From Alphaproteobacteria bacterium (GTDB lineage: Bacteria > Pseudomonadota > Alphaproteobacteria > M2410), in NCBI GenBank assembly GCA_965248915.1, contig OZ252216.1, positions 1,507,001 through 1,571,000 on the forward strand: a DNA stretch of 64,000 bases. The letters are read 5' to 3'. Under the pieces are notes generated by a model. That model ran no database searches, had not been told where the DNA came from, and saw nothing but the letters and a program-made list of their open reading frames with translations. A program made the translations under genes and the position numbers. Shown piece after piece: positions 1 through 62,063 of the stretch. Numbering within the stretch: the first letter of the stretch is position 1; every line of letters starts with the position of its first letter.

Positions 1-1464
1 TTGCCCGCTAAGATGCCCCAGACGACGCACTTCTCCAATGTGAACGTAGCAGGCGATCGCCGCCAACTCTCCTAGTGTATCCCAATCAAGTTCAGCTCCT
101 TGGAAACCATCGGGGAACTCTTCATCAATATACCCGGTCGTTAATCGACCCTCCCGAAAGCGGTCTTGACCATACACGGCGCTAAGAAACGGGATGTTAT
201 GTTGAATGCCTTCTATGTGAAAAGAATCCAGCGCACGGATCATATGATCGATTGCGGCGTTTCGATCCGGTCCATGCACACACAGCTTGGCAATCATAGG
301 GTCATAATACAGTGAGATTTCCGACCCTTCGACAACCCCCGTATCATTGCGCACCGTAAGTCCATCTCTCGTTCCTTCTTCCGGCGGCGCATAGCGCACC
401 AACCGTCCTATTGAAGGGAGGAAGTTACGAAAAGGATCTTCCGCATAGATACGGCTTTCAAAGGCCCATCCGTTCAATTGTATACCTTTTTGGGTCAGTC
501 CGAGTTTCTCACCAGCCGCGACGCGTATCATTTCCTCAACCAGGTCAATACCGGTAATGAGTTCGGAGACCGGGTGTTCAACTTGCAATCTTGTGTTCAT
601 TTCCAGGAAGTAAAAGTTCCGATTGTCATCGACAATGAACTCGACAGTTCCAGCGCTCTCGTAGTCCACTGCTTTCGCAAGCGCAACAGCTTGCTCACCC
701 ATTTTCTTTCGCGTTTTTTCATCCAGAAATGGACTGGGTGCCTCTTCAATGACCTTCTGATTGCGTCGTTGAATTGAACACTCGCGTTCGCCGATATAGA
801 CAGCACTGCCGTGCTTGTCCGCCATCACCTGTATTTCAATGTGGCGCGGATCCGTAATGAACTTCTCAATGAAAACCCGGTCATCTCCGAAGGACGATCG
901 AGCTTCATTTTTAGAAGAATTGTACCCTTGCTCGACCTCTTCCTCGGAATGGGCGATACGCATACCTTTGCCGCCACCCCCCGCTGAGGCCTTGATCATC
1001 ACCGGATAGCCGATGCCATTGGCAATTTCTATGGCCTCTTGTGAGGTCTCGATCACGCCAAGATATCCTGGCACCGTGTTCACTTTGGCCTCATTCGCGA
1101 ATTTCTTGCTCTCGATCTTGTCGCCCATCACCTGAATGGCTTTTACATTGGGGCCGATGAAGGCGATCCCCTCTGTTGCAAGCCTCTCGGCAAAACCCGA
1201 ATTCTCCGAAAGAAAACCATAGCCTGGATGAATGGCTTCAGCCTTGGTGTGCTTTGCCGCTTCAACAATTCGCTCAGCAATCAAATAGGACTCCGACGCA
1301 GCAGATGGTCCGATGTGGACACACTCATCTGCCATTCTGACATGCAACGCATCTGCATCTGCATCTGAGTATACTGCCACCGTGGCAATGCCCATTTTGC
1401 GCGCCGTCTTGATTACCCGACAGGCAATTTCTCCGCGATTGGCGATGAGTATCTTCTTAAACAT
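1..1464 (-). CDS. pccA: Biotin carboxylase domain of the acyl-CoA carboxylase alpha subunit, most likely propionyl-CoA carboxylase alpha. Only the N-terminal ~488 aa are in the window; the gene runs past position 1.
   Basis: Reverse-strand translation starts [26 protein letters not shown] and contains the ATP-grasp motif [17 protein letters not shown] (minus strand of 958..1005). pccB lies upstream on the same strand. The + strand ORFs at 478..1009 are antisense artefacts. Confidence 0.85.
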
Positions 1465-1650
1465 TGCGGCTTCTTCTACCCGGCCGCCAAGATCTGCTCT
1501 CTTACAGTCTAGGGGTCTTCGGGCATCCCTTCTTTTGGGGGTCAACGGGCACACTTGCGGTCATAGAGTCTCACCGCCAAGCTAGACACTCCCATTCCAA
1601 ATTGGAAGGAACATGTCAACCACACAAGCCGCAGCAGAGTGTCCGAATGC

Positions 1651-2442
1651 CTAAAGAATCTCTTCCAAAGTCGGAGGGAAATCCCACCAGGTCCCATCTG
1701 GTTTTCGATTGGTATAGATGAAGAGATGGCCTCTAAATGTCAAAGTGCCATACTTCGGGCGGTCAAATGCAAAAATGAGCGCCCGATCAACATACGCCGC
1801 ATCCGCCTGCTGCCTGAGGTAATGGGACCAGACTTCGAGACTGAGTGCGTAGATTTCTTCCGGGTCGTCGATACTCCCATCGTAGTGATAATCGAGAACC
1901 ATGGAGAGGACACCTGAAACCATCTCAACACGCAGGGATTCCATTTGAATGACGTGTCCAGATGGCAATTCAATCGCGGTCGAAGGGTGCTTGGGGCCAG
2001 GTGGTGGTTTTATCTCAAGGACTTCATCCGTGGTCAAGTTTCGCCACGGACCGAAATTTCGCCGTTCATATTTGTGGATCGCGCCACTTGAGACACGAAT
2101 GGGACCAATTGAGGGGAGAGTATCGATGTACAGCCAAGCATCATTCAGCCCGGACACTTCGGCAAATGTGCCTAGATAAGCGACAAAAATCTCATTTGCT
2201 GTGTCTTCCAAACTCTGACCGTCACCCAATTGGAGGACACTTACAGTCAGCTGTGCGACTTCACTCAGCTCTCCATCGCCAATGATCCGCATAATCGTGG
2301 CGTCTTGAACAACAATACGCGACCCAGAATAGAGTTCAACTTCAGTGCCCTCCGGCACAGAGCACGCCGTAGCCAACCACCCGACAAGGAAAAGAACCGC
2401 AATCCGAGGAAATACCTGGAGCACCAACGCAATACACTTCAT
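1651..2442 (-). CDS. Hypothetical lipoprotein
   Basis: 263-aa ORF with an N-terminal signal peptide and a lipobox-like LATAC. No recognisable catalytic motifs. Confidence 0.5.
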   Translation of the reverse strand: MKCIALVLQVFPRIAVLFLVGWLATACSVPEGTEVELYSGSRIVVQDATIMRIIGDGELSEVAQLTVSVLQLGDGQSLEDTANEIFVAYLGTFAEVSGLNDAWLYIDTLPSIGPIRVSSGAIHKYERRNFGPWRNLTTDEVLEIKPPPGPKHPSTAIELPSGHVIQMESLRVEMVSGVLSMVLDYHYDGSIDDPEEIYALSLEVWSHYLRQQADAAYVDRALIFAFDRPKYGTLTFRGHLFIYTNRKPDGTWWDFPPTLEEIL

Positions 2443-2529
2443 TCACTATCCCCCGAAGGCCCCCGCCTTCATGATGGAACAATGTTAGCGTCTTTTTCCG
2501 TTCTTGTCTTGGTCTCAAACTGAGTGAAC

Positions 2530-2826
2530 CTACTGGGTTTCAGTCGATTCTGCGCTCGTTTCACCGGCAATCGTGCCGAGACGGTCGTAAATCTTGAATG
2601 ACAAAATCATCAGCTCGCACCAAATCCGCCAAAAGACCAAGGCCAAGGGCGTGAACAAAACGATCTGAAACAAGCCAGCAAAGAAACTATTTGTCATCGT
2701 ATATAGACCACCGAATACGCCTCCGAGAATAATCAAAGCGCCAACGACAAAGTAAATCAACTGAATGATCTGCGGAGCGATCATCTTCTCAAAACTTAGG
2801 AACGAATTAAGCAAAGACTGAGGCAT
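2530..2826 (-). CDS. Small membrane protein, DUF4282-like
   Basis: 98 aa with two hydrophobic segments (IIQLIYFVVGALIILGGVFGG; IVLFTPLALVFWRIW), typical of DUF4282 proteins. Confidence 0.5.
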   Translation of the reverse strand: MPQSLLNSFLSFEKMIAPQIIQLIYFVVGALIILGGVFGGLYTMTNSFFAGLFQIVLFTPLALVFWRIWCELMILSFKIYDRLGTIAGETSAESTETQ

Positions 2827-3117
2827 GGTCTTATCCTCCCAATGGAATCAATAGGTCAATATCCGCATGCTGCCAGAACCGCTAAGCCCTGTCACCCACC
2901 GCCCTCACCCAGGGTGGGACAATCAATCGAGGAATTTTTGATCGAATTACCCTTTGAATCCAGACTAGGTGGCTCTTGCGAAAAACTAGCTGACTTCCCT
3001 CGGTACACGGAAAGCCCACACAATCGACATCCCGCGCTGCCACCCTGATTCTTGACCGTCTTAAATTAATGGTCCTTACTCAGACACCTAAGAGTCAGCA
3101 TCTTTTGGGGTGACCAG

Positions 3118-5346
3118 TTGGCAAATGTGTTCTTGAGCTATGCGAGCGAAGATCGCGATCAAATTCGCGACCTCGTTGCGTTTCTTGAAGATGCAGGTCT
3201 TTCAGTTTGGTGGGACAATCGGCTATTGGGTGGGTCAATGTTCTCTACTGAAATCGAGAATGAGTTGACCCAGTCGGAAGCTGTGATCGTCGTATGGTCA
3301 CGACATTCAGCAACCTCCCGATGGGTCGCGGACGAAGCCGAACTCGCTCTTCGATTGGGAAAGCTAGTTCCCATCCAAATAGATCAAACTGAACCGCCTC
3401 TCGGATTTCGACAAATCCAAACTATCGATCTCTCACAATGGCAAAACGACGCCGATGATCCAATTTTCATCACCCTTCTGGCGTCACTTCGCGCCAAATT
3501 GACGAATGTGCCAGCGTCAATCCATCGCTCCGCCACCGCTCGAACCAAAGCCCCGAAGTACTCCATTGCTGTCCTACCCTTCGTAAATATGTCGGCAGAT
3601 CCCGATCAGGAATACTTTTCTGACGGAATCTCAGAAGAGCTCCTAAATTTGCTCGCCAAAGTAACTCAAATGAAGGTCACAGCACGAGGATCAACATTTC
3701 AGTTCAAAGGTAGAGAACAAGACGTAAAGAGAGTCGGTAGCCTATTGAATGTCGCGCATGTGTTAGAGGGTAGCGTTCGCAAGGCAGGTAACCGCGTACG
3801 AATAACCGCTCAGCTCATTGAGTCAGACACGGGCTATCACATTTGGTCTGAGACCTACGATCGAACATTGGAAGACATCTTTGAAATTCAAGATGAAATC
3901 TCAGCCGCCATTGTACATGAGCTAAAGGAACGAATACTCGACGCTACCGAAATTGACTCACCGAAATCCAACCGAAGTGCAAATGTCGACGCCTATGAAC
4001 ACTTCCTACTCGGTCAACAACTACTCAACACAAGAACCAAGTCTTCAATTGAACGTGGATTGAGCGAGTTCGAAAAGTCACTGACCTTCGATCCCGATTA
4101 CCTTCCGTCACTCGTCGGTCTCGCTGAATGTCACTTGCTGCTGAGCAAGCACATTACCAGCTATGGATCGACGTCAATCAAGGAAGCGCAAGCAAAAGCT
4201 TGGCCACTTCTTCAACTGGCAGGCAAAATCGAATCCAAGAATGCCGATGTTTATTCCGCTCAAGCTCTTTATGCACTCATTGGCGATGACCTAAAGAACG
4301 CCAAAGAACTTTCCGAAAGAGCAATAGCGATAAACTCCAATAGCGCCGCCGCACATCGCATATTGGGATTTGCCTTAGCGGGATTAAGTGGTTCGACACA
4401 TCAAATTATTCCAACTCTGCAGAAGGCTCTTGAAGTAGATCCCCTGTCCTTGTCGACACTCATTTCCCTTGCGAATGAATACAAGTATCGCGGACGCTTC
4501 GCCGAAGCAGAAGCTTTGAGGCAGCGTTGTCTTGTAATCAATCCGATTTGGCCCGGCGTACTCAATGGCATGGCCAGCGATGCCTACACACGAGGCAGTC
4601 TGAAGATTGCCCTGTCCGTCTTCACCGATCATGAATCACTGCTCACCTCACCTGTTGGCTTGGCAAATATTCAACTCATTCTTACGCGGCTAGGGTTTGG
4701 TCAAGAAGTCGAATATCTCGAGGAGTACATCGCGCTCACGCTCTACTCCATTTATGGCTTTGAAGACGATGCAAATCGATTGGGCAAACGACTCACCGAC
4801 TCGCTACCTGCTGACACTGACTATGAAACAGCACTGACATTTGTGGACTGGTATTCGCGGATCGGTAAAAACAAAGAAGCTCTTGCCCTTCTGGCTCCAT
4901 TCGTAATCGACACGGACCCTTTGCAGGGGCTACTCTTTAGCCCCGACAGCGACTATTACGGCGCCATGTACATGTACCACCTAAGTTTGGAGTTGGGCGA
5001 CGTCGAGACAACAAAGGTCTACTTGGAAAATCTTCGGATTATTCATAAGGATCTTATTTCTGATCCCAACGGCATCTCCATTCGAGCTTTCATGATCGGC
5101 GCCTTGATTGCATTGGCAGATGGTGACATCGAGGTCTGTTGCGATCAAATCGAACAAGAGTTCGAACGAAACAAATCTGATACGGCATTTGAATATTCGC
5201 CATTCTTTGAACGCATCGCCGACTATCCGCGCTTCAAGGATCTCGTGGGGTGGGCCCGCAAAAATCTTCAAGCTGAGATTTCAACCGCCAAGCAAGACGG
5301 ATTGCTGCCTCCATCAAAGGAACTGCTTCAAGCCATCAAAGAATAA
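3118..5346 (+). CDS. TIR domain protein with a cyclase-associated middle domain and C-terminal TPR repeats
   Basis: N-terminus FLSYASEDRDQIRDLVAFLEDAGLSVWWD...VIVVWSRHSATSRWVADEAELA matches the bacterial TIR_2 fold, including the WxxxE glutamate position. The middle segment IAVLPFVNMSADPDQEYFSDGISEELLNLL...LEGSVRKAGNRVRITAQLIESDTGYHIWSETYDR matches the region that follows the cyclase domain in TPR-containing adenylate cyclases. The C-terminal ~450 aa are helical, TPR-like repeats. Confidence 0.8.
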   Translation: MANVFLSYASEDRDQIRDLVAFLEDAGLSVWWDNRLLGGSMFSTEIENELTQSEAVIVVWSRHSATSRWVADEAELALRLGKLVPIQIDQTEPPLGFRQIQTIDLSQWQNDADDPIFITLLASLRAKLTNVPASIHRSATARTKAPKYSIAVLPFVNMSADPDQEYFSDGISEELLNLLAKVTQMKVTARGSTFQFKGREQDVKRVGSLLNVAHVLEGSVRKAGNRVRITAQLIESDTGYHIWSETYDRTLEDIFEIQDEISAAIVHELKERILDATEIDSPKSNRSANVDAYEHFLLGQQLLNTRTKSSIERGLSEFEKSLTFDPDYLPSLVGLAECHLLLSKHITSYGSTSIKEAQAKAWPLLQLAGKIESKNADVYSAQALYALIGDDLKNAKELSERAIAINSNSAAAHRILGFALAGLSGSTHQIIPTLQKALEVDPLSLSTLISLANEYKYRGRFAEAEALRQRCLVINPIWPGVLNGMASDAYTRGSLKIALSVFTDHESLLTSPVGLANIQLILTRLGFGQEVEYLEEYIALTLYSIYGFEDDANRLGKRLTDSLPADTDYETALTFVDWYSRIGKNKEALALLAPFVIDTDPLQGLLFSPDSDYYGAMYMYHLSLELGDVETTKVYLENLRIIHKDLISDPNGISIRAFMIGALIALADGDIEVCCDQIEQEFERNKSDTAFEYSPFFERIADYPRFKDLVGWARKNLQAEISTAKQDGLLPPSKELLQAIKE
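5219..5343. repeat. Copy A of an imperfect direct repeat; it is the true 3' end of the TIR-TPR gene
   Basis: About 85% identical to 7196..7320 by eye (gactatccgcgcttcaagga...agacggattgctgcctcc...). Confidence 0.8.
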
Positions 5347-5414
5347 TCCATTCAAAGAAAGACGGCATGTATCAAGTCAAATTTCGCAGTTGTCATTGAG
5401 CAAGAAAAACCTAG

Positions 5415-7100
5415 CTACTGGACAAGGTCGATTGCATATCTAATCGGGGCATTTCGAGAGTAATTGTACTTACGCAAAATTTCGTATGTAATCTCATGGG
5501 CAGGCGTCAGCAATAGGTTTTCCTTATCGTCTAGTTCAATTTGCGAATTGTGGACAAGGTACGAATGAGAAATCGTGCCTTTCAACTTTGAGTTCTTCAG
5601 TTCAAAGTCAACAGTCTCCCCCATTTGCGCAATGTTTTGCGAAGGCACTCCGCCCACATGAGTTGCTCCTAACAGATCAAGGTACATCGCAAACATGAAT
5701 CCCGCACTGTATGTAGATGCGTTCGTCACGAAAAGTACTTCTTCAGGTCGAAAAAACTCGGCATGTGACCCTTTCATGTATTCATCATAGAATGTCTTGG
5801 AAAGAGCCAAGTCCTCTTCGACAATGCGCTTGACGTATTCACGCTCCAACAGTCCTTCACTCATTCTTGAGACATCACTCAGATCATAGTCTGAATTTCG
5901 AAGCGGAAAATCACGCATACCGTCCCTACCGGCAACTTCGTTAAGCTCTTCCAGCGTCTGATCCGGTTCAGATGAAAAATAATAGGGGGAGAGCTTTCTT
6001 GAAACGACATTTGTACGTCTGTGAAGTTCAATAAGTGCCTCTTTCCCATAAAGAAAATAAACCAACATGTCAGCTGGATACGCCCAACCTCCAATGTTTG
6101 TTCTAAGGTCAACAATAAGAACGCGGGATGAGTTCTGCTTCATTTGACGCACAAGATCCGTGTAGGTATCCGTCAGAGAAGGCAACTTGGCCATCGTTTC
6201 ATTCAAGGAACCAGTTGGCTTTTCCCCATAGATGTCGTGATAAAAGTCCTCTACACCATCGGTAACGTCTGAGTACGTGGATCGCTTTTCCCAGGTCTCG
6301 CGGTTTTGGACCATTCTTGCAACGCGCAAATAAGCAATCTCTTTGTCATTGCCGAGAAAGCCCCAACCAAACTCGCGCCCGGATGTTGAAGGCAGCTCCA
6401 GGACCTTTTCGGTACCTTTGAGTCTATCATCCACGCGAGAACGTGTCGCAAATCGCACGACTTCACTTTTGCCGTCAGGTAGTTTGAACGAAGCCTTAAG
6501 CAGAGATTTGTCTTGCCATTCCGGCACTAGATCTTCAAGAACGCTTCTCTTTCCAAGGAAGAATTCGAAGTTCGCTAGTTGGGCAAGCGTTCCATAAATA
6601 TTGTCAGCTCCGTAGTATTTTCTTGTCCGCTCGACAAGCTGATCGAATTCGACACCCTCAATGGATTCCAACCGAGCCCCAAAAAGCGATTTGTGTTCAT
6701 CGTCCATTGCGCCAGCAACGTAGAGACCTTCCTCCACCACAAGAAAATACAAGGGGATGCCGGAGAAATCCGTTGGCCCATCTGGATATACATTTGTATG
6801 TCCATCTCCAATAGAAACTAACAATGGGCTGAGCAATCCGCGATAAGCTTCCCTTCCCATTCCTTCTTGCGGAATGGCCCTTAACACACTTTGAAATCGC
6901 TCATGGAATGCCAATTTTCCTCCACCAACAAAATACGGCTGCGGATGGGCGCTCTCGATCAACTCGGCTATTTGTCTTGTGTCTGCAATCAACTCATCTT
7001 TGCTAATCAGACCATCCAGCGCATCTGATCGCACCGAAATTCCGGTCAACAGAATGCAACAGACAACTAGAATTTGAATATTTCGCAAAGATTTTACCAC
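5415..7100 (-). CDS. Secreted S41-family (C-terminal processing / tail-specific) peptidase
   Basis: Signal peptide (MVKSLRNIQILVVCCILLTGISV). S41 signature VLIVDLRTNIGGW and a serine region NASTYSAGFMFAMYLD. Confidence 0.7.
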   Translation of the reverse strand: MVKSLRNIQILVVCCILLTGISVRSDALDGLISKDELIADTRQIAELIESAHPQPYFVGGGKLAFHERFQSVLRAIPQEGMGREAYRGLLSPLLVSIGDGHTNVYPDGPTDFSGIPLYFLVVEEGLYVAGAMDDEHKSLFGARLESIEGVEFDQLVERTRKYYGADNIYGTLAQLANFEFFLGKRSVLEDLVPEWQDKSLLKASFKLPDGKSEVVRFATRSRVDDRLKGTEKVLELPSTSGREFGWGFLGNDKEIAYLRVARMVQNRETWEKRSTYSDVTDGVEDFYHDIYGEKPTGSLNETMAKLPSLTDTYTDLVRQMKQNSSRVLIVDLRTNIGGWAYPADMLVYFLYGKEALIELHRRTNVVSRKLSPYYFSSEPDQTLEELNEVAGRDGMRDFPLRNSDYDLSDVSRMSEGLLEREYVKRIVEEDLALSKTFYDEYMKGSHAEFFRPEEVLFVTNASTYSAGFMFAMYLDLLGATHVGGVPSQNIAQMGETVDFELKNSKLKGTISHSYLVHNSQIELDDKENLLLTPAHEITYEILRKYNYSRNAPIRYAIDLVQ

Positions 7101-7195
7101 CGCTCATGCCTCAGATGAATTTGTTGTTCGCATTTCAAAACAAACAAAGTCTCGTCATTTACCGAATTCAAGTGTCCTAAATTACACGTCTGGTC

Positions 7196-7320
7196 GACTA
7201 TCCGCGCTTCAAGGACCTCGCGGGGTGGCCCGCAAAGTCCTTCAAGCTGAGATTTCGACAGCCAAGCCAGACGGATTGCTGCCTCCCAACAAAGACCTCA
7301 TACAACTTACAAAGATGAAC
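7196..7320 (+). repeat. Copy B of the direct repeat: a degenerate, frameshifted fragment of a TIR-TPR C-terminus (pseudogene remnant)
   Basis: Translates to VDYPRFKDLAGW and then loses frame through a 1-bp deletion relative to copy A (tggcccgca versus tgggcccgc). With the frame restored it reads ...QAEISTAKPDGLLPP.... Confidence 0.75.
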
Positions 7321-7322
7321 AG

Positions 7323-7610
7323 TTAGTCGTTTTCTGGCCTTTCAACTCTGCAAGCATAGAAGTAAACGATCCGATCCATTTTCCAATCGACACCTTCATC
7401 AACCAGCATAATGTCCATCTCATGGTCGCCGTCCGTATCGACATAGTGCAATTGGGTATTGTCCGAGCGATAGGACAAAATCACATCGCCGTACTTTCGA
7501 GGGCGTTTGTCCGGATCAATGTCTGTACTGACAACAGTTTCACAATCATCAGCTGTTGCCGAAAATGGAAAGACCCCAATCACCAGAACCGCTAATAGAA
7601 TTCGCCACAT
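7323..7610 (-). CDS. Small secreted hypothetical protein
   Basis: 95 aa with a signal peptide (MWRILLAVLVIGVFPFSATA); acidic mature part. Confidence 0.4.
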   Translation of the reverse strand: MWRILLAVLVIGVFPFSATADDCETVVSTDIDPDKRPRKYGDVILSYRSDNTQLHYVDTDGDHEMDIMLVDEGVDWKMDRIVYFYACRVERPEND

Positions 7611-7696
7611 ACAACCCTCCGTGCGTTTGCCACACTACAACACCTAGCAAAGGGCTGGCAAGTAATCGAAAATAAGTAGTGAACGAGTATCACCAA

Positions 7697-9229
7697 TTAC
7701 AAAGGAATATTGTCATGCTTCTTCCAGGGCATCTCGACTTCCTTTTTCCGCAACATGGCAAGTGACCGCGCGATCCGCCGCCGTGTTGAGTGCGGCATGA
7801 TCACATCATCAATGTAACCACGTTCGGCCGCAACGAAAGGATTGAGGAAACGCTCTTCATACTCTTGTGTACGCGCAGCAATCTTGTTCTCATCGCCAAT
7901 GTCTTTTCGGAAGATAATCTCCACCGCCCCTTTGGCACCCATCACGGCAATTTGCGCGGTCGGCCACGCGTAATTGACATCACCGCCCAAGTGTTTGGAC
8001 GACATGACATCGTACGCACCGCCGTAGGCTTTGCGTGTAATCACGGTGACTTTGGGAACCGTTGCTTCGCCGTAAGCAAAGAGAAGCTTTGCCCCATGTT
8101 TGATCAACCCGCCGTATTCCTGATCAGTGCCAGGTAAGAACCCTGGCACATCAACAAACGTAACAATTGGAATGTCAAAGCAGTCGCAAAAGCGAACGAA
8201 ACGCGCGCCCTTCCGGCTTGCGTCAGAATCCAGCACGCCGGCCAGAACCATCGGTTGATTGGCAAGAAAGCCAACGGTCCTGCCATCGATCCGTCCAAAC
8301 CCTGTAACCATGTTCTGGGCAAAGGCCTCTTGGATTTCAAAGAAATCACCTTCGTCGGTTACTTTAAGGATGAGTTCCTTGATGTCGTACGGTTTGTTAG
8401 GATTGTCCGGAACAAGACTATCAAGCGAGAGCTCAATACGGTCGATATCATCCTCCGTTGGCAAGACCGGAACATCATCTCGGTTCGACAAGGGGAGAAG
8501 GTTCACTAATCGCCTCACTTGTGTGAGTGCTTGAATATCGTCGTCATAGGCACCATCCGCAATGGATGATTTTGACGTATGAATACGCGCGCCACCAAGT
8601 TCTTCAGCGGTAACGGTCTCTTGTGTCACCGTCTTGACCACATCAGGCCCGGTAACAAACATGTAGGAACGATCTCGTACCATAAAGATGAAGTCCGTCA
8701 TCGCTGGCGAGTAGACATCACCGCCAGCACACGGTCCCATAATCACCGAGATCTGAGGAATGACGCCCGAAGCGGTAATGTTGCGTTGAAAGACTTCGCC
8801 ATATCCGCCGAGAGCTGCAACTCCTTCTTGAATGCGGGCACCGCCTGCATCAAACAAGCCAATGATCGGCGCTCCAGCTTTCAACGCCATATCTTGAATC
8901 TTGCAGATCTTCTGAGCATGCGTCTCCGACAAAGACCCGCCAAACACGGTGAAGTCTTTGGCGAACACAAAAACCAATCGCCCGCTGATGGTGCCCCAAC
9001 CGGTCACGACGCCGTCACCGGAGATCCCCTGCTCTTCCATACCAAAGTCGGTACAACGATGCTCGACGAACATGTCCCACTCTTCGAAGGACTCTTCGTC
9101 AAGCAATACTTCGATACGCTCCCGCGCGGTCAGCTTGCCTTTCGCGTGTTGCGACTCAATCCGCCTCTGCCCGCCACCTTGGCGTGCTTGTTCTCTCTTC
9201 TCTTCAAGTTGGCGAAGAATGTCTTGCAT
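7697..9229 (-). CDS. pccB: Propionyl-CoA carboxylase beta subunit (carboxyltransferase)
   Basis: 510 aa with the two-domain carboxyltransferase layout; motifs include [37 protein letters not shown] and GGAYDVM. Confidence 0.9.
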
Positions 9230-9331
9230 GGTGAACTCCGATTAGAAGGGTCATTTTTCTTGGGCCGAGTCGGCATTGAGCCAAGCCATGACATAGCAGC
9301 CAAGCCCAATCTTGCCAATTGCTTAAGGAAG

Positions 9332-10054
9332 CTAGGCGCTTTGACCTCTTAGGCTCTGTTGAAACTTCTTGATGGCGACGATCTCATCGCAGATCGCCGC
9401 TCGCCGCTCTGCTGCTTCTTCGTCTTGTCCCCATTGGGCCTCTTGCCACAACTCGTCGACCAAAGAGAGCGCGTGGGCCTCTTCTGCTGTCACCTCATTG
9501 TGGAACAACGCCAGTGCAAGAACTGTCGAACCAAGAAGTGGAATTGTTGGATGAACTCCAGCCAATTCAAATCGGTCGAGACTTTGCAAGAATCGACGAA
9601 GGTTCTCAATCGAAGCCACAGGTTGATCTATTGCTGAAATTCCAACCGTTACGTCCAGCGCAAATCCTACTGCATCTGCAGCCCATTGAAGAAGAGGATC
9701 CCACTTCTCGGCCTGGTGTCCCCGCAACTCCGGAGGTGTTTCAGCCCGGTAACACAAGAGATCGGAACCAGCATAATCAACAGCGGTTTCTACAAATCGA
9801 TTACATTCTGTCGCATCTCTGTCGACCGCCCCTTGCGCTAAACGGGTAACAGGCATCGATTTTGGATCGATGGTTTCCTCTTGTGCCGCCCACTCTTGCA
9901 GGATCAGGTGCGCAGTCGCTTCTTGCGGAACGGAGAGGACAGTCCGGCCAGGGGTAAGAACAGGTCGTTCATCAAGATGAATTGTGAATCCATCGTCTTC
10001 TCTGACGACTAAGACATCTTTGTAAATTCGCTTGATGGACACGGGTGCGCTCAA
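9332..10054 (-). CDS. ATP12-family F1-ATPase assembly chaperone
   Basis: 240 aa starting KRIYKDVLVV...GFTIHLDERPVLTPG; this matches ATP12 proteins of alphaproteobacteria. Confidence 0.7.
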   Translation of the reverse strand: MSAPVSIKRIYKDVLVVREDDGFTIHLDERPVLTPGRTVLSVPQEATAHLILQEWAAQEETIDPKSMPVTRLAQGAVDRDATECNRFVETAVDYAGSDLLCYRAETPPELRGHQAEKWDPLLQWAADAVGFALDVTVGISAIDQPVASIENLRRFLQSLDRFELAGVHPTIPLLGSTVLALALFHNEVTAEEAHALSLVDELWQEAQWGQDEEAAERRAAICDEIVAIKKFQQSLRGQSA

Positions 10055-10074
10055 CTCGCTTCGTCGATTGGTTT

Positions 10075-12057
10075 CTATTTCGCTTTCTTGAAGTCGAAAT
10101 CGTACCGTTCGTCAATATCATCGTGGATCGTGATTGTCCCACGATTGAGTTCAGGCGACCCAAGCAATGCACTAATGCACGGATTTTCGCCCTTTGCATC
10201 GTCATCGATAAGTGGCAACAAATCCTCATCTGCCTCCCTGACCAAGGCAAACCGACCCAGTGCCCCGGCAATGCCCCGAGAGACCGATCGGTCGTCCAAA
10301 TTGAAATAGGGTTGGGTGAGCGAACCTGTGACCCGAAGATCAGACGCATAGTCCAATAATGCCGGATTGAGAGGACGCGGCGCTAACCGAAGATCTACAG
10401 ATTCGGTTCCAAAGTTCAGATTGCCCCGCCCAGTCGTAATTAGATTGTGGGTTTGGATCAAAAAGGCGCGACTCTTGGCAAATCCATTTTTGATATCAAA
10501 TCGACTGACCGCACAATTCAAATTGATTTCCCGGGGCGCGTCGCCAATCGTACCATCTTCCAGCACCTGTGCTGCCAAAGGCCTGAGCTGCGCCATGAGA
10601 TCTCCGCCAAAGAACCGCCCAGCCCGTTCAGAGAGTTTTCCCGACCCGACAATCAGATTTGTCTGACCGTCCGCATTGGCGAACATACTTGCGATCGTAT
10701 CTCCTTCTCCATTGATATCGGCCGCGAAATCGAGCCTAGCTTGGAACTCGTCCATCACATTCATATCGGCCAGAAAGAGACCGAAATCGAAATTCGTAAG
10801 CGATGCAATCAATCTGAATTTCGGCGATAGTCTTGCGTCAACAATGAGCGAGGCATCAAACGCCCCATCCAAAAATGAAACAGCAACAGGATTCGCTGAC
10901 AAGACACCGTCCAGCAGGATAATTCTCACTTGGCCGTCATTCAGCAAGCCATTGGCCAGAAGAATGCGATCAGCGTAGTAGTCGAGCTCAATTTCCGAAG
11001 ATAAGAGAAATTCGATAGGAAGAGGATCATCGGAAAACAACTTTTTCGGCTTGCGTCGCAATCGAGCGCCTTCAAACGCATCAAGATCGAGAAGTTCAGA
11101 ACGCAGCGCGCCAGTTATGGTCAGGCTTTCATCGCGCTTAATCTCAATCCTTCCGTTTACATCTCCCCGCCCAATCCCGGCGTAAAGATCCTCAATCACG
11201 AAGTGTGACCTTGTGCCCGAAATGTTGGCGGTCAATGTAGTCGGCACATTTTGTTGCAAGTCGGTGATCCCAAGGAGAATTGCGACATCGGCAAGTTGTG
11301 GCGCATCGCCTTCCGCCAACAAATCAAGGCCAACGCTTTCGAGTTCGCCAAACGACCCTGAGACATTGAGATTTGCCGTTCCACTCTGAAAGGTCCCATC
11401 GATGAAAACCCGGTGGCCACTTAAAAAGGCAGAGACCGGACCAGATCGCCCTGTGAAGTGCACCTCTTGACCTTCAATGAACCCCATCGCTTCAAGATTG
11501 AGACCAATCTCACCAGGTGTGGCCGTTGCATCAGACAAAACCATCGTAAACACCGGCGTCGCTGCATTGATCAATTCAATCTGTCCACCAATCAACCGGA
11601 GACGGTTGAGGGCCGACATCCTAAAAGGTTCAGGCCCTGCCAACTTGAAACCAGATGAGGGGGCACGGTCCACGACATTCATGTCGCGACTAGGAACAAG
11701 GGACAAATCCGTATCAATGAGTTCAAGTGTTTCGACTTCGATACGACGGTGCAGCAAGGGCTTGAGACGAACCAGCGCCCGCATCTTCCCAATCTGCGCG
11801 GCGTAGGGAGCTACCGTTTCTGTCAATGGCTTGCGGTCATTGATCCCGACGCTCTCGAATGTCAGCCAAATACCCGGCGCCTTCGCAAGATCGAGGCCGA
11901 TAGGTCCAGAAACGATGATTTCCTGATCAAACTCTTCGCTGAGCATCGCTCCGACATCGGGCAACACTGGGCGTAAGTCGAGCGTGAACGGCGCGATCAA
12001 AAGACCGGCGATCATCAATACCATGGATGCGAGAATGGTGCCCCCAACTTTTCGCAA
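10075..12057 (-). CDS. AsmA-family outer-membrane assembly / lipid transport protein
   Basis: 660 aa with an N-terminal membrane anchor (MRKVGGTILASMVLMIAGLLIAP) followed by a long beta-rich, repetitive region typical of AsmA. Confidence 0.6.
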   Translation of the reverse strand: MRKVGGTILASMVLMIAGLLIAPFTLDLRPVLPDVGAMLSEEFDQEIIVSGPIGLDLAKAPGIWLTFESVGINDRKPLTETVAPYAAQIGKMRALVRLKPLLHRRIEVETLELIDTDLSLVPSRDMNVVDRAPSSGFKLAGPEPFRMSALNRLRLIGGQIELINAATPVFTMVLSDATATPGEIGLNLEAMGFIEGQEVHFTGRSGPVSAFLSGHRVFIDGTFQSGTANLNVSGSFGELESVGLDLLAEGDAPQLADVAILLGITDLQQNVPTTLTANISGTRSHFVIEDLYAGIGRGDVNGRIEIKRDESLTITGALRSELLDLDAFEGARLRRKPKKLFSDDPLPIEFLLSSEIELDYYADRILLANGLLNDGQVRIILLDGVLSANPVAVSFLDGAFDASLIVDARLSPKFRLIASLTNFDFGLFLADMNVMDEFQARLDFAADINGEGDTIASMFANADGQTNLIVGSGKLSERAGRFFGGDLMAQLRPLAAQVLEDGTIGDAPREINLNCAVSRFDIKNGFAKSRAFLIQTHNLITTGRGNLNFGTESVDLRLAPRPLNPALLDYASDLRVTGSLTQPYFNLDDRSVSRGIAGALGRFALVREADEDLLPLIDDDAKGENPCISALLGSPELNRGTITIHDDIDERYDFDFKKAK

Positions 12058-12094
12058 CGTCTCACCCTCACCCTAGTCGATCTGGTGTTTGACT

Positions 12095-12766
12095 CTACCC
12101 AGGCCAGATCTCGTTTAGAACTCGATGCAGCGCGTCAAATCGATCTATGACCGATATTGCCCCCGCCGCCATCAGCTCTTCTGGGTCATGATAGCCCCAT
12201 TTTACGCCCACCGCATGCGTTCCTGCATTTTTGGCGAGTTCAATATCGAAGATTGTGTCGCCGACGACAACCGTTTCGTCCGGATCGGCCCCAATCTGCG
12301 CCATCGCATCGGTCAAAATCTGAGGATCTGGCTTGCCTGGACCGTCATCGGCGGACTTAATAATATCAAAGTAGGGCTCAAGCCCGTGTTGAGCCAGCAC
12401 TGCATCGACCCCGCGTCGAGACTTGCCTGTGGCCATTCCCATATGGTGGCCGACCCTTCGCAGAGCGTCCAAGACCTCCTTGGTCCCTTCAAATAATGGT
12501 TCATGAACCTTCTCCGTCTCTCGGATGGTAAAAAAGGCTTCCCGATACGTCTCCGCGACCCGGGCGGCCAGTTCGGGATCACCATCCTCCAGAAGAACCA
12601 TAATGGCTTCATCTAGGTGAAGACCAACCACCCGGCGCACCGCGCTTCGCGGCAAAGGATCAAGTCCATGCGCCGCAAAAGCCCGTGACATGGCTTCTGC
12701 AATCATGAATTGGCTGTCCACCAAGGTTCCGTCGCAATCAAAGACGATGAAACGTGGAGTATTCAT
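12095..12766 (-). CDS. HAD-superfamily hydrolase, phosphoglycolate phosphatase-like
   Basis: HAD motif I FDCDGTLVDS; later GDTIFDIELAKNAG. Overlaps rluD by 4 nt. Confidence 0.75.
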   Translation of the reverse strand: MNTPRFIVFDCDGTLVDSQFMIAEAMSRAFAAHGLDPLPRSAVRRVVGLHLDEAIMVLLEDGDPELAARVAETYREAFFTIRETEKVHEPLFEGTKEVLDALRRVGHHMGMATGKSRRGVDAVLAQHGLEPYFDIIKSADDGPGKPDPQILTDAMAQIGADPDETVVVGDTIFDIELAKNAGTHAVGVKWGYHDPEELMAAGAISVIDRFDALHRVLNEIWPG

Positions 12767-13770
12767 CCATCCAAATCCAATTCATCAAAGGCACCTTCGC
12801 CCTCATTTTCTTCGAAAGTGAGAAGCGACCAGGTTTTTACCATGTGGTTGGGCAAAGGGGCTTCCACAACAAGCTGCCCTTTTCGCGGGTGAGGCAGAGA
12901 TATCGACCTCGCATGGAGGTGCATCTGCTTTGATATCTCACCGCCCAGCACTGCGTCTGGCCCGCCATATTTTCTGTCGCCGACTATGGCATGGTCGATG
13001 GCTGCACTGTGAACCCTTAGTTGATGCGTTCGTCCTGTCGTCGGCATCAAAGCAACCCAGGAAGATTGTTGCCCGGCCCGTGCCACCACTGAGTAGTGCG
13101 TGATCGCCTTTTGAGCTTCACTAAAGAGCTCTGGCGTCTCGTCGGTCACCGGCACCATGCGCTCACCATATTGACCGCCTGCTTGTTTCGCGATCGGCAA
13201 ATTGATCGTGCCTTGCTCTGGACGTGGTACTCCGACACAAAGCGCCCAATAGATCTTTCGAGCCTTCTTTCCTTTGAATGACTTTCCGAGCTTTCCTGCA
13301 TAAGCACCTGATTTTGCGAGCAAAAGGACACCGCTTGTATCCTTGTCGAGACGGTGAACAAGCCGCGGTCGCTCCGCACCCTCTTCAACCAATCCCGGCA
13401 ACATCGCGTCCAAATGACGCTCCGTCATGCTTCCACCTTGAACCGCAAGACCTGGTGGTTTGTTAAGCGCTATCACGGCATCATCTTCGTAAATCACAAG
13501 ACTGCGGACAAATTCTCGGTCCCGCGCGCTGACATATTCTGGCGTCTTGGGTAATGAATCGCTGTCGCGCAAAGGCGGCACCCGCACTGTCTGACCTTCG
13601 ACGATCCGCGCTGAGGATTTGACCCGTTTCCCATCAAGGCGAACCTGGCCGGTTCGAAGGAGTTTTTCGAGCCGACTGCGCGGCAAATCGGGAAAGCGGT
13701 CTTTGAACCACCGGTCGATCCTGCGCCCATCCTCAGCGTCTGTTACTTCGAATTTTTGTACGCCGCTCAT
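12763..13770 (-). CDS. RluA/RluC/RluD-family 23S rRNA pseudouridine synthase
   Basis: N-terminal S4 domain (RIDRWF...RSRLEKLLRTGQVRLDGKRV) and catalytic HRLDKDTSGVLLLAKS. Confidence 0.8.
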   Translation of the reverse strand: MSGVQKFEVTDAEDGRRIDRWFKDRFPDLPRSRLEKLLRTGQVRLDGKRVKSSARIVEGQTVRVPPLRDSDSLPKTPEYVSARDREFVRSLVIYEDDAVIALNKPPGLAVQGGSMTERHLDAMLPGLVEEGAERPRLVHRLDKDTSGVLLLAKSGAYAGKLGKSFKGKKARKIYWALCVGVPRPEQGTINLPIAKQAGGQYGERMVPVTDETPELFSEAQKAITHYSVVARAGQQSSWVALMPTTGRTHQLRVHSAAIDHAIVGDRKYGGPDAVLGGEISKQMHLHARSISLPHPRKGQLVVEAPLPNHMVKTWSLLTFEENEGEGAFDELDLDG

Positions 13771-14159
13771 GTCAGCACCGCCCGCATGATCGCCAGCCCG
13801 GCAAACAAAGCGGCTATCGCGAGAACGACCGATGAAACAATATAGAGAAAGGACGGCAACAATTGGCCCCGTTCAAACAGCGTGATCGCATCAAGGGCGA
13901 AGGTCGAAAAAGTTGTGAAACCGCCCAGCACCCCGACCGCCAGGAATGCACGTGCTTCCAAGCTGAGATTGAGTTTGAGGGCCGCCGCTTCAATCAATAC
14001 GCCCATTAGGAACGACCCCAACACATTGACCAATAATGTGCCCCAGGGGAAACCAAGCCCCATCAACCGGATCATCCAAGTCGAAACCAAATGTCGACTG
14101 GCTGCGCCAACTGCCCCGCCAAGAGCGACCGCTAGTGTAATCTGGAGCGCCTGAGGCAT
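13767..14159 (-). CDS. crcB: Fluoride ion channel CrcB/FluC
   Basis: 130 aa with four TM segments; motifs GFPWGTLLVNVLGSFLMG and GGFTTFSTF. Confidence 0.85.
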   Translation of the reverse strand: MPQALQITLAVALGGAVGAASRHLVSTWMIRLMGLGFPWGTLLVNVLGSFLMGVLIEAAALKLNLSLEARAFLAVGVLGGFTTFSTFALDAITLFERGQLLPSFLYIVSSVVLAIAALFAGLAIMRAVLT

Positions 14160-14196: not shown

Positions 14197-15621
14197 CTAA
14201 ACCGGTTTTATTGCGGTTGCAGGTGTTGGACTTCCACTGACACCGCCTCTTACGGCACGTTTTTCCGATTTTTTCCACTCTCTGCGCAAGTAGAACGAAT
14301 ACTCCGAACAATCAATCTGAATTGTATGGCTCTCTGACGATGTAAAACGCGATTTCATCCACGTATCGTAGGCCGCCATCTCAGACCGCATGACCCCCTT
14401 GTCCGGCAACACCACCTCGCCCACCAAGTAATCCGCCACAAAATTCGATTGCAGTTCGGCAATCGGCATCATGGCACACAGCGGTTGGACCAATGCAATA
14501 AAGGCCAAGTTCTCAATTTCTGGGTTGAAGATCCTCTGCCATAAAGGAATTGAATTCTGCGGCGCCGAAATGAAGTCTTTGTCAAAGAAAGGAAAGGTCA
14601 CATTGTATCCAGTGGCATAGATGATCGCATCGACGTCTTCCACCGAGCCATCCTCAAACATCACCTGATGACCCATCAGTTTCTTGATGTTCCCTTTCGG
14701 TGTGATGTCCCCGTGGATCAAACGGGCGTGCAGCTCTTGGCTCACTGTGGGATGGCGCATGTGGAATGGCTCCTTGGGCTCTTTCAATCCAACCCGCGTC
14801 GGCGACCCAAGGTTCCGCGTCAGCAGTTTTTCAATCACCCGGTCTGTCATCTTAAGTCTAAGACTGCGTGGTATCACCGCACGGATCAGACGCTCCTTCC
14901 AAGACGGCATCACCATCGGGTTTCGGGCCAACGCATCCTGTGGCACATTGCCAAAGACCTTCGGTACAATCCAAACACCTGAGCGCTGCGCCAGATAGAC
15001 GTTTCGGGCTCCCTGCCCCACATGTCCAAGTTCACAAGCTATATCCATTGCCGTATTACCCATGCCGACAACTACAACGTTCTTGTCGCGAAGGTCGTGC
15101 GGCGTCTGAGTGTCAATATAGTGATGGGCATGAAACTGCGGACCGTCAAACTGACCAGGGAAATCCACCATGCGCGGATCCCAGTGATGACCATTGGCAA
15201 CACAGAGAAAATCATAATGTTCGACAGAGACGCCCTCAGGACCCTCTACCGAAATTTCCCAAGTTCCATCATCGAGCCGCTTGCAGGCTTTTACCTCAGT
15301 GTTGAACTGGATTTGGTCTCGTACGCCAAACTCATCTACGTAACGATTGTATTCAGCATAGATTTCATCATGGGTCGGATACTCAGCAATCTCGGACCGA
15401 AACTTGAAATCCGATAACTCCATCATCCGTTTTGAAGTGTTGATATGAAGCGAACGATAGCAAGTCGATTGGCCATTATCGTTGTCGAATCGCCAGATGC
15501 CGCCAATACCGCTTCCCTTTTCGTAAACGACAACGGGAACCCCGTGCTGTTTGAGAACCTTCGCACAAATCACACCGCTCGTTCCGGCGCCAATCACACA
15601 TGTCTTCGGCCGCTCGACCAT
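14197..15621 (-). CDS. Flavin-containing monooxygenase; candidate trimethylamine monooxygenase
   Basis: FAD-binding GAGTSG. FMO-identifying motif FxGxxxHxxxY is present as FDGPQFHAHHY. Second Rossmann motif VVVVGMGNTAMD. Confidence 0.7.
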   Translation of the reverse strand: MVERPKTCVIGAGTSGVICAKVLKQHGVPVVVYEKGSGIGGIWRFDNDNGQSTCYRSLHINTSKRMMELSDFKFRSEIAEYPTHDEIYAEYNRYVDEFGVRDQIQFNTEVKACKRLDDGTWEISVEGPEGVSVEHYDFLCVANGHHWDPRMVDFPGQFDGPQFHAHHYIDTQTPHDLRDKNVVVVGMGNTAMDIACELGHVGQGARNVYLAQRSGVWIVPKVFGNVPQDALARNPMVMPSWKERLIRAVIPRSLRLKMTDRVIEKLLTRNLGSPTRVGLKEPKEPFHMRHPTVSQELHARLIHGDITPKGNIKKLMGHQVMFEDGSVEDVDAIIYATGYNVTFPFFDKDFISAPQNSIPLWQRIFNPEIENLAFIALVQPLCAMMPIAELQSNFVADYLVGEVVLPDKGVMRSEMAAYDTWMKSRFTSSESHTIQIDCSEYSFYLRREWKKSEKRAVRGGVSGSPTPATAIKPV

Positions 15622-23697: not shown

Positions 23698-24024
23698 CTA
23701 ATACATATTTAACTGAAGACGCGCCTCTTCCGTCAATCGGGACATATCCCAAGGCGGATCAAACACCATGTTTACATTTACGCTCCTAATACCTGGCACG
23801 ATTGAAACAGAATCATGTACCCAGACCGGCATTTCAACGGCCACAGGACACCCAGGCGCTGTAAGCGTCATATCGATATCCACGTCTTTGTCATCTGAGA
23901 CATCAATCTTGTAGATCAGTCCCAATTCAAAAATGTCGACTGGAATTTCTGGATCATAAACGGTTTTGATCGCAGCGATGATCTGTTCCGTCAGCCCTTC
24001 CAGTTCTTGTGCCTCAATGGCCAT
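23698..24024 (-). CDS. SUF-system DUF59/MIP18-family protein (SufT-like)
   Basis: VYDPEIPVDIFELGLIY motif; sits between sufS and sufA. Confidence 0.75.
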   Translation of the reverse strand: MAIEAQELEGLTEQIIAAIKTVYDPEIPVDIFELGLIYKIDVSDDKDVDIDMTLTAPGCPVAVEMPVWVHDSVSIVPGIRSVNVNMVFDPPWDMSRLTEEARLQLNMY

Positions 24025-61277: not shown

Positions 61278-62063
61278 ATGTCACGATACAATTCACGACC
61301 AAAGATGTTTGCCATCGGTCTTCTTTCATGTGTGGTTTCCTCAACTGCAATGGCCGAGACAGACGAGAAACAAACAGCCTTTGGCGACGACCAAGTTGAT
61401 GCAATCGAACAAGTGATTTACGACTATCTGATGACCAATCCAGAAGTCATCATCGAAGCGGTTGAAGTCTTACAAGCGCGAGAAGAAGCTGAAGCCGCTG
61501 CAAAAATTGCGCAGACCCTTCGAGACAGTCATGATGATATTTACAATTCGCCTGACTCCCATGTTGCAGGAAATCCAGATGGTGATTTGACCATCGTCGA
61601 ATTCTTCGATTACAACTGCGGATATTGCAAACGCGGACTTGATGGACTCCTTGAAGCTGTCGAGGAAGATTCCAACGTACGATTGGTATTCAAAGAGTAT
61701 CCAATTTTGAGTGAGGACTCAGTTCTCGCGTCTCAAGCCGCTTTGGCCTCTCGCAACCAGGGCAAGTACATGGACTTTCATGTCGCGCTGATGCGCTCGA
61801 CCGGTGGCCTGTCTCAATCTCGCATTGATCAGATTGCAAAAAGCGTTGGCATCAATGTGAAGCAACTCCATAAAGATATGGAAGATCCCATGATCGTCGA
61901 CATGATTGCCGCAAACAAAGTGCTGGCTGACAATCTTTCGATCAGCGGCACGCCAAATTTCATAATCGCAGATCAAATATTTCCTGGGCTGATGGAAAAA
62001 GATCAACTTACAGCGGTTTTCGCTCAGCTTCGTGCAGCAAAGAAAGAAGCCGCGGTCAACTAG
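61278..62063 (+). CDS. DsbA-family thiol:disulfide oxidoreductase
   Basis: Thioredoxin-fold active site FFDYNCGYCKRG; signal peptide. Confidence 0.85.
   Translation: MSRYNSRPKMFAIGLLSCVVSSTAMAETDEKQTAFGDDQVDAIEQVIYDYLMTNPEVIIEAVEVLQAREEAEAAAKIAQTLRDSHDDIYNSPDSHVAGNPDGDLTIVEFFDYNCGYCKRGLDGLLEAVEEDSNVRLVFKEYPILSEDSVLASQAALASRNQGKYMDFHVALMRSTGGLSQSRIDQIAKSVGINVKQLHKDMEDPMIVDMIAANKVLADNLSISGTPNFIIADQIFPGLMEKDQLTAVFAQLRAAKKEAAVN

Follow-up and report, generated by a model that had tools for sequence, protein, structure and literature searches.

A probable lineage-specific accessory islet between pccB and pccA in an alphaproteobacterial genome

Genes between pccB and pccA

The genes for the two subunits of propionyl-CoA carboxylase, pccB and pccA, were analysed in a stretch of 64,000 nucleotides from an alphaproteobacterium (assembly GCA_965248915.1, contig OZ252216.1, positions 1,507,001 to 1,571,000), here called the window. 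Both genes lie on the same strand and are separated by 6,232 bp that hold five open reading frames (ORFs), a block that we regard as a probable accessory islet. The features of the locus are listed with their window coordinates.

1..1464, minus strand: pccA (propionyl-CoA carboxylase alpha subunit); the 488 N-terminal codons lie in the window and the rest past its left edge
1465..1650: spacer of 186 bp from the lipoprotein stop to the pccA start; predicted site of a pccA promoter or of read-through
1651..2442, minus strand: putative lipoprotein, 263 residues; N-terminal hydrophobic segment and LATAC lipobox-like motif, no Pfam match
2530..2826, minus strand: DUF4282 small membrane protein, 98 residues; PF14110 at E 1e-13, two hydrophobic segments
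2827..3117: intergenic DNA separating the divergently oriented DUF4282 and TIR-TPR genes; may mark a recombination boundary
3118..5346, plus strand: protein with a TIR domain, a CadC-sensor-like alpha/beta domain and a TPR solenoid (TIR-TPR protein), 742 residues; TIR_2 at E 6e-25, and TPR
5211..5343, plus strand: repeat copy A, the functional 3' end of the TIR-TPR coding sequence (last approximately 44 codons)
5415..7100, minus strand: S41-like secreted peptidase, 561 residues; PF03572 at 31 bits, N-terminal hydrophobic segment
7186..7314, plus strand: repeat copy B, a frameshifted remnant of the TIR-TPR 3' end
7323..7610, minus strand: small secreted protein (small95), 95 residues; N-terminal hydrophobic segment
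7697..9229, minus strand: pccB (propionyl-CoA carboxylase beta subunit); Carboxyl_trans at E 5e-198

The reverse-strand translation of 1..1464 matched Biotin_carb_N, CPSase_L_D2 and Biotin_carb_C in Pfam (biotin carboxylase domains at E 1e-83), and the protein was 65-76% identical to PccA of related loci. Between pccA and pccB no further ORF of at least 90 amino acids was found. The ORF calls and Pfam domains bore out the original prediction that five genes lie in this interval, and its description of them as secreted, membrane or signalling proteins also held. In a hydropathy scan, an export or membrane location fitted four of the five proteins, each with hydrophobic segments; the exception was the TIR-TPR protein with its TIR domain.

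No integrase, recombinase or transposase was detected among the five ORFs in Pfam, NCBIfam and PADLOC scans, and no tRNA gene and no Rfam match were found in the 64-kb window. Repeats that pair the boundaries 1465-1650 and 7611-7696 were not found either. A consensus promoter and terminator scan of 1..9600 gave nothing above the shuffled expectation and provides no evidence on the transcription units.

The interval in related bacteria and its base composition

Related loci were collected in a PccB scan with one genome per species. The scan listed 80 pccB loci, and closer genomes may exist beyond these. The 80 alphaproteobacterial PccB proteins were 76-82% identical to PccB of the window, and PccA was located in each locus by tblastn. 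Only 7 of the 80 loci had adjacent pccB and pccA genes (gap 7-146 bp), showing that in this clade the two genes are not normally close together, contrary to the earlier assumption. A same-strand spacer of 1.2-9.1 kb was observed in 17 loci and an inverted pccA in one. In another 42 loci pccA was missing within 10 kb downstream of pccB, in 37 of them on neither side, and in the remaining 13 the contig was too short to place it. The ORFs of the 17 spacers matched 53 Pfam families, hardly any of which recurred; DUF6497 and a MiaB-like radical-SAM protein were found three times each. Since the spacer in this clade ranges from 7 bp to more than 10 kb and carries unrelated cargo, a gap of 6.2 kb appears unremarkable in itself. 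Judged by these loci, it is normal, and no exception, for the spacer to be filled in this part of the Alphaproteobacteria. Literature searches on pccB, pccA and pccR found no description of the pccB-pccA spacer.

The five interval proteins had no tblastn match (E ≤ 1e-3) in any of the 80 listed loci, which supports the earlier claim that the block is not part of a conserved pcc operon. Except for DUF4282, each of the five and also PccB was without another genome in its 90%-identity cluster; all six are recorded from one contig of 3.54 Mb. The source lineage appears to lack a close sequenced relative, with a PccB at most 82% identical to that of the 80 species representatives.

The best flanking synteny among the listed loci was found in a Parvibaculum metagenome-assembled genome (MAG; locus L007), which is collinear with the conserved flank upstream of pccB at 9332..14159 (minus strand). 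This flank contains the following genes, assigned with Pfam.

9332..10054, minus strand: ATP12 chaperone
10075..12057, minus strand: AsmA
12095..12766, minus strand: HAD hydrolase
12763..13770, minus strand: pseudouridine synthase
13767..14159, minus strand: CrcB

The five L007 genes encode products 30-57% identical to those of the window, for three of the five the highest values seen in the listed loci. PccA of L007 was likewise the closest (76% identity), and its pccA starts about 10 bp after pccB, with none of the interval genes between them. The same flank without AsmA was present in L070 (Thalassobaculaceae), where the pccB-pccA gap is 48 bp, and was collinear also in L004, L006 and others. 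From these loci, parsimony favours an adjacent ancestral pccB-pccA pair that would have been filled in a lineage-specific manner.

Two observations concern the flank itself. Among the syntenic loci listed, an AsmA gene between ATP12 and HAD was seen only here and in L007, and this placement may be a shared derived feature that links the source lineage to the Parvibaculum group. Directly upstream of the CrcB/pseudouridine synthase/HAD block, at 14197-15621, lies a gene for a flavin-containing monooxygenase (FMO-like, E 4e-75) that is absent from the compared loci.

The guanine-plus-cytosine (GC) content of the interval was 47.9%, compared to 52.5% for the remaining 57.8 kb of the window. This confirms, to a modest extent, that the TIR-TPR and S41 genes are more AT-rich than the flanks. 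The interval was the GC minimum of the whole 64 kb when scanned in segments of 1, 2, 4.6 and 6.2 kb. All 1-kb segments below 47.5% GC lay within 4751..7750, and the trough of 44.1% was at 5251..6250 in the S41 gene. The individual genes had 50.6% (lipoprotein, which is host-like), 48.4% (TIR-TPR), 46.0% (S41), 45.8% (small ORF) and 45.5% GC (DUF4282), with a mean of 52.0 ± 2.8% for 55 ORFs of the window. The tetranucleotide distance of the interval was the largest in the window (z about 3.4). The AT-richness of the interval is real and non-random within the window, and is a base shift of a few points and not a foreign signature. At 61278-62063, the GC content of a gene for a ScsC/DsbA-like thioredoxin-fold protein (46.9%) is as low as that of S41, which shows that the interval genes are not alone in having low GC.

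Old and probably younger parts of the block

The DUF4282 protein matched PF14110 with 52 bits (gathering cut-off 27) and has hydrophobic segments at residues 20-38 and 47-73. Its 90% cluster also holds a protein from L087, a metagenomic Logan contig of 1,362 bp from SRR14699982 that aligns to 3572..2097 of the window. L087 has the same gene order and orientation, with the TIR-TPR N-terminus followed on the opposite strand by DUF4282 and the lipoprotein N-terminus. The amino acid identities were 71% for the TIR-TPR N-terminus (over 153 residues), 95% for DUF4282 and 80% for the partial lipoprotein. The synonymous divergence (dS, Nei-Gojobori) was 0.93 for DUF4282, 0.96 for the lipoprotein and 1.82 for the TIR-TPR fragment. 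DUF4282 and TIR-TPR are separated by 291 bp here and by 171 bp in L087, and this DNA was unalignable while both of its flanks aligned. Because order and orientation are the same in a relative that has diverged at a dS of about 1, the arrangement of the lipoprotein, DUF4282 and TIR-TPR genes is old and inherited. Judging by dS, TIR-TPR has evolved faster or diverged earlier than the genes beside it, in keeping with an allele replacement.

Other relatives of these proteins were scarce. A DUF4282 probe of Joint Genome Institute (JGI) metagenomes returned one weak unrelated match and no further relatives. The lipoprotein had no match in Pfam, NCBIfam or PADLOC, and a full HMMER search of 1.84 billion representatives gave 8 weak matches (E 1e-7 to 1e-3). 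In a word-index search with a chimeric query of small95 and the lipoprotein, only the lipoprotein itself was returned and not even the entry of small95, so that the search says little on small95. The lipoprotein appears to have almost no detectable relatives and no credible homologue, and its single-sequence AlphaFold model was too poor for use, with a predicted local distance difference test score (pLDDT) of 43. For small95, no match was found in Pfam, NCBIfam and PADLOC, and its 90% cluster is a singleton.

The S41 protein matched PF03572 weakly (31.2 bits), yet above the gathering cut-off of 24, and PF03572 is precomputed for most of its homologues. The family motifs DLRxNxGG (331-338) and T-x-S-x-G (463-467) were conserved across 50 members. 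Ser465 within T-x-S-x-G was conserved, no conserved Lys for a Ser-Lys dyad was seen downstream, and the conserved His52 and His101 are candidates only for a Ser-His dyad. Homologues were found in 53 clusters among 5.8 billion; the best were 53-56% identical, and the sole named one is from Eudoraea sp. (Flavobacteriaceae). Three contigs with homologues of the closest clade (L084-L086) had 33-43% GC and carried DUF6090 arrays, a CarboxypepD_reg-TonB receptor and CBM9/DUF5916, which we take to be typical of Bacteroidota.

In contigs of 33-37% GC, the S41 gene was slightly GC-richer than its contig. At 43% GC or more it was AT-richer than the contig (L085, L091, L092 and the window), and in L090 it was equal. 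In L092 the gene (3475-5157) had 46.9% against 53.7% for the contig, and in the window 46.0% against 52.2%. That the gene is AT-richer than most host contigs of more than about 43% GC suggests that low-GC donors passed it on more than once, and the donor lineage was probably low-GC and Bacteroidota-like. Because of the GC pattern, the rarity of the family and the repeat that brackets the gene, S41 is the best candidate for horizontal acquisition and the one interval gene for which positive evidence points to it.

The bracketing repeat corresponds to the internal duplicated fragment of the original prediction, which was confirmed. The segment 5211..5343 recurs in direct orientation at 7186..7314, with 80-85% nucleotide identity in the core and about 77% over the full span. 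Copy B has a 1-nucleotide deletion that breaks the frame. It has the S41 start codon (7100) on one side and the small ORF's stop (7323) on the other, and copies A and B thus flank S41. The conceptual peptide of copy B was 77% identical to the C-terminus of the resident TIR-TPR protein and the next best among 120 family members only 42%; the remnant therefore appears to come from a close allele or paralogue in this lineage. Codon position 3 holds 16 of the 31 differences between the copies. The observed ratio of position 3 to positions 1/2 of 2.1 is bracketed by the expected ratios of about 2.6 and about 1.7 and does not separate a diverged functional allele from neutral decay after duplication. 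Most likely, a diverged allele carrying S41 replaced the resident TIR-TPR allele. A duplicative Campbell-type insertion of an S41-carrying circle is possible, as is the deletion of most of a tandem TIR-TPR paralogue, for which clusters such as the four copies within 22 kb of the metagenomic contig L081 provide a precedent. All three routes, between which the codon-position pattern does not decide, imply gene turnover inside the interval.

The TIR-TPR gene starts with a TTG at 3118, and the database copy P0001 (739 residues) begins 3 codons later. The longer TTG-initiated form (MANVFLSY...) is backed by the alignment with homologues (MADIFVSY...). The AlphaFold model (pLDDT 86) showed the TIR domain at residues 1-129, a linker, the alpha/beta domain at 148-274 and helical repeats at 290-742. 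Residues 1-129 were modelled as a beta-alpha fold with a pLDDT of mostly 75-91 and of about 64 in the loop 31-40. An S-x-W-V-x-D-E motif (W69, V70, D72, E73) was invariant in 35 homologues. E73 is the putative catalytic Glu by analogy with the W-x-x-x-E position, and not from a structural superposition. In a PDB profile search the protein matched the AbTIR NADase structures 8g83 and 7uwg. With Foldseek, its middle part (residues 148-340) superposed on the periplasmic domain of CadC (3lya; target TM-score 0.64, root mean square deviation 4.8 Å), and a weak CadC/HilA match was obtained in NCBIfam. The protein is probably cytoplasmic because the hydropathy scan showed no clear, strongly hydrophobic segment of the transmembrane type. 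A sensor fold of the CadC type, which is normally periplasmic, appears to be used here in the cytoplasm; this region is labelled 'TolB-like' by JGI.

Homologues of the TIR-TPR protein have about 740 residues, are found in alphaproteobacterial MAGs and are, except for L087, at most 45% identical. In the contexts examined they were at scattered positions among housekeeping genes and never near pcc or S41 genes. The alphaproteobacterial metagenome contig L081 (355-22223) has four paralogues (597, 740, 689 and at least 680 residues) amid housekeeping genes, which shows that several members of the family can occur together in a cluster. More distant relatives join the same scaffold to a guanylate/adenylate cyclase (PF00211) or protein kinase domain, and their JGI labels read 'TolB-like protein' or 'adenylate cyclase'. 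In PADLOC, only matches at the level of the TIR domain were obtained (Thoeris ThsB, SAVED-TIR and Argonaute-TIR models), with none for the neighbouring proteins, and no cognate partner (ThsA, SAVED, STING, Argonaute or retron reverse transcriptase) was detected beside the gene. A literature search on TIR, TolB-like and TPR found nothing relevant. Taking sequence and model together, the protein is most likely a cytoplasmic switch that senses a ligand or a protein and has a TIR output (NADase or signalling). A function in defence is possible and unsupported.

Origin of the block and its relation to known systems

Taken together, our results favour a lineage-specific accessory islet that was probably built in at least two layers, at a position that accumulates unrelated cargo in many Alphaproteobacteria. 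In the ancestral state ATP12 would have been followed by adjoining pccB and pccA genes, which is the arrangement of the Parvibaculum and Thalassobaculaceae comparators. The older layer would consist of the lipoprotein, DUF4282 and the divergent TIR-TPR gene, arranged before the split from a relative that is about one synonymous substitution per site away. The younger layer would be the AT-rich right part, altered by recombination. S41 would have arrived or been rearranged there after a TIR-TPR gene already abutted the gene of the small secreted protein, since the live TIR-TPR 3' end and the frameshifted copy bracket S41 and since its family is found mostly in low-GC, marine Bacteroidota-like contigs. 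In a replacement of the resident TIR-TPR allele, the most likely route, the old 3' end would have been left behind. The TIR-TPR gene on the opposite strand would uncouple pccA from pccB, and pccA would therefore be expressed from its own promoter or from a DUF4282/lipoprotein promoter. No conserved functional module is formed by the five genes. As is typical of such islets, they code for surface, secreted or sensor proteins. The earlier suggestion of a horizontally acquired islet stands in so far as the block is accessory and lineage-specific, S41 has a foreign phyletic and GC pattern and the remnant indicates turnover. It does not stand for a single island, as the left three genes are old and mobility genes are absent.

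Several points weigh against this reconstruction. The ancestral adjacency is drawn from parsimony because the closest listed genomes are distant (PccB at most 82%). Neither mobility genes nor a tRNA nor boundary repeats were found that would indicate a mechanism of insertion. L087, with its 1,362 bp, does not show whether the block of the relative is located between pccB and pccA or has S41. In a neighbour-joining tree, which carries no support values, the S41 protein of the window was placed in a basal polytomy of the clade with the Eudoraea sp. member, with identities of 47-100% within the clade. Two contexts of this clade, L090 (49% GC) and L092 (54% GC), are taxonomically unclear, so the clade is not purely Bacteroidota. 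In L091, on the sister branch, a 35%-identical homologue (8001-9602) stands alone between secB and dnaQ-coaE-maf in a core region that looks alphaproteobacterial, a further case of a single gene of this rare family inserted amid housekeeping genes. With these contexts the donor lineage of S41 is not fixed.

The composition can also be read in another way, namely that the dip reflects the gene class (secreted, membrane and weakly expressed genes and AT-rich intergenic DNA) in native genes and not a transfer. The GC difference of 4.6 points could partly be explained in this manner. The dinucleotide relative-abundance distance of the interval ranks 12 of 116 and is not an outlier, and the Karlin codon bias of its genes is ordinary for their lengths. 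A deviation in GC and codon usage had been expected from the original prediction; the GC minimum was found in the block at all scales, whereas codon bias was normal. GC is lower than in the host for TIR-TPR homologues too (55.7% vs 61.4% and 54.1% vs 58.0%), and the native-looking window genes 23698..24024 and 61278..62063 reach 46-47% GC. On the other hand, no scale gave a lower value elsewhere in the window, the dip extends without a break over about 3 kb, and S41 adds a foreign phyletic pattern and is AT-richer than its host in another contig with 54% GC. We therefore consider gene class as the sole cause possible but doubtful.

A transfer of all five genes in one event into an adjacent pccB-pccA pair would agree with a contiguous block that forms the GC minimum of the window and whose genes were in none of the other pcc loci listed. 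Such a single event is improbable. GC falls stepwise from 50.6% (lipoprotein) through 48.4% (TIR-TPR) to 46.0% (S41), and dS to L087 differs two-fold between neighbouring genes. The S41 and TIR-TPR families differ in their phyletic distribution and were never seen side by side elsewhere, the internal pseudogene remnant records a separate, later event, and the block has no integrase, tRNA or flanking repeat. Even less probable, and to us barely credible, is that the genes are old residents of the pcc locus, expressed jointly with pccB and pccA, which other lineages have lost. It is true that all interval genes except TIR-TPR lie on the pcc strand, that many Alphaproteobacteria have genes in the pccB-pccA gap and that the left three genes are conserved in the relative, but none of the 80 listed loci has a homologue and their cargo is unrelated. 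Moreover, pccB and pccA are adjacent in the best-syntenic listed loci, searches of billions of proteins gave practically no relatives for two of the genes, and TIR-TPR lies on the opposite strand and converges on S41.

The islet might also be a defence locus in which the TIR-TPR protein, as a putative NADase sensor, works together with S41 and/or small95. The conserved W-x-x-x-E motif and the resemblance to the AbTIR NADase are in line with this, as are the TIR-level matches to the Thoeris ThsB, SAVED-TIR and Argonaute-TIR models, the multi-copy clusters in L081 and the faster or deeper divergence of TIR-TPR with its allele turnover. In Bacillus cereus, a TIR/TPR pair is reported to act against phages (bioRxiv 10.1101/2023.05.26.542521). 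However, no match at the system level was obtained in PADLOC, where the other four proteins matched nothing. No S41 or small95 gene lies beside the TIR-TPR homologues of L081, L082 and L088, and none of the six contexts examined for S41 homologues has a TIR neighbour. The adenylate cyclase or kinase heads on the same sensor scaffold point to general signalling, and we consider such a module unlikely. A related proposal is that the TIR/CadC-sensor-like/TPR proteins form a family of alphaproteobacterial TIR (NADase) sensors, so far uncharacterised, which are cytoplasmic, lack an NTPase and behave in the manner of immune or conflict genes, and that the islet is a small defence or conflict locus in which a sensor allele was swapped together with S41 by recombination. 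Its signs would be the multi-copy clusters, genes AT-richer than their hosts, a synonymous divergence twice that of the neighbours and the pseudogene relic. We regard this as speculative, though marginally less so than the joint module.

Returning to the layered accessory islet, its main value is a correction, as the 6-kb interruption of pccB-pccA is striking only when viewed in isolation. In Hyphomicrobiales and Rhodobacterales-type genomes the spacer is routinely filled with lineage-specific cargo, and the split is therefore no sign of an unusual propionate metabolism. The block would be an ordinary islet produced by ordinary genome plasticity, a fresh instance of a familiar phenomenon. As a mosaic islet it is a clear case: it has no mobility genes, and the pseudogene relic documents the turnover of its genes. 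It also contains a member of a very rare S41-like subfamily that appears to move between low-GC Bacteroidota-like and higher-GC, proteobacterial-looking genomes. The conserved and unstudied architecture of TIR, CadC-like sensor and TPR, with its putative catalytic Glu intact, is a reasonable candidate for NADase activity or signalling.

The concept of chromosomal hotspots or islets, in which accessory genes lie between conserved core genes, is established in comparative genomics. The block resembles them in its accessory surface, secreted and sensor genes between core genes, in cargo that differs between lineages, in a GC content below that of the flanks and in the internal remnant. It differs in that integrase, tRNA, insertion sequence and boundary repeat are absent, that part of the block is old and that the variability of the cargo was seen here between families and genera. 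With a classical genomic island it shares the deviating composition (GC and tetranucleotide), but not an integrase, recombinase or transposase, a tRNA or flanking direct repeats.

The S41-like protein has PF03572, both motifs and the N-terminal signal-like segment in common with peptidase family S41 (C-terminal processing peptidases, tricorn core). Unlike these, it has no detected PDZ domain and no conserved Lys after the Ser, and it belongs to a tiny subfamily. The TIR-TPR protein is similar to the bacterial TIR NADases (AbTIR, Thoeris ThsB, BcTir/BcTpr) in its TIR_2 domain with the conserved putative catalytic Glu E73, and to the BcTir/BcTpr pair in combining TIR with a TPR region (bioRxiv 10.1101/2023.05.26.542521). 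In contrast to these, it is one polypeptide in which the TIR is followed by a CadC-sensor-like alpha/beta domain and then by a helical solenoid of approximately 450 residues. The gene has no ThsA, SAVED, STING or Argonaute partner and encodes no NTPase, and the NADase activity is putative here. Its central domain and first helices superpose on the CadC sensor structure 3lya, but the sensor is predicted to be cytoplasmic rather than periplasmic. With its 'TolB-like'-TPR relatives the protein shares the scaffold, and it differs from them by TIR as the output domain.

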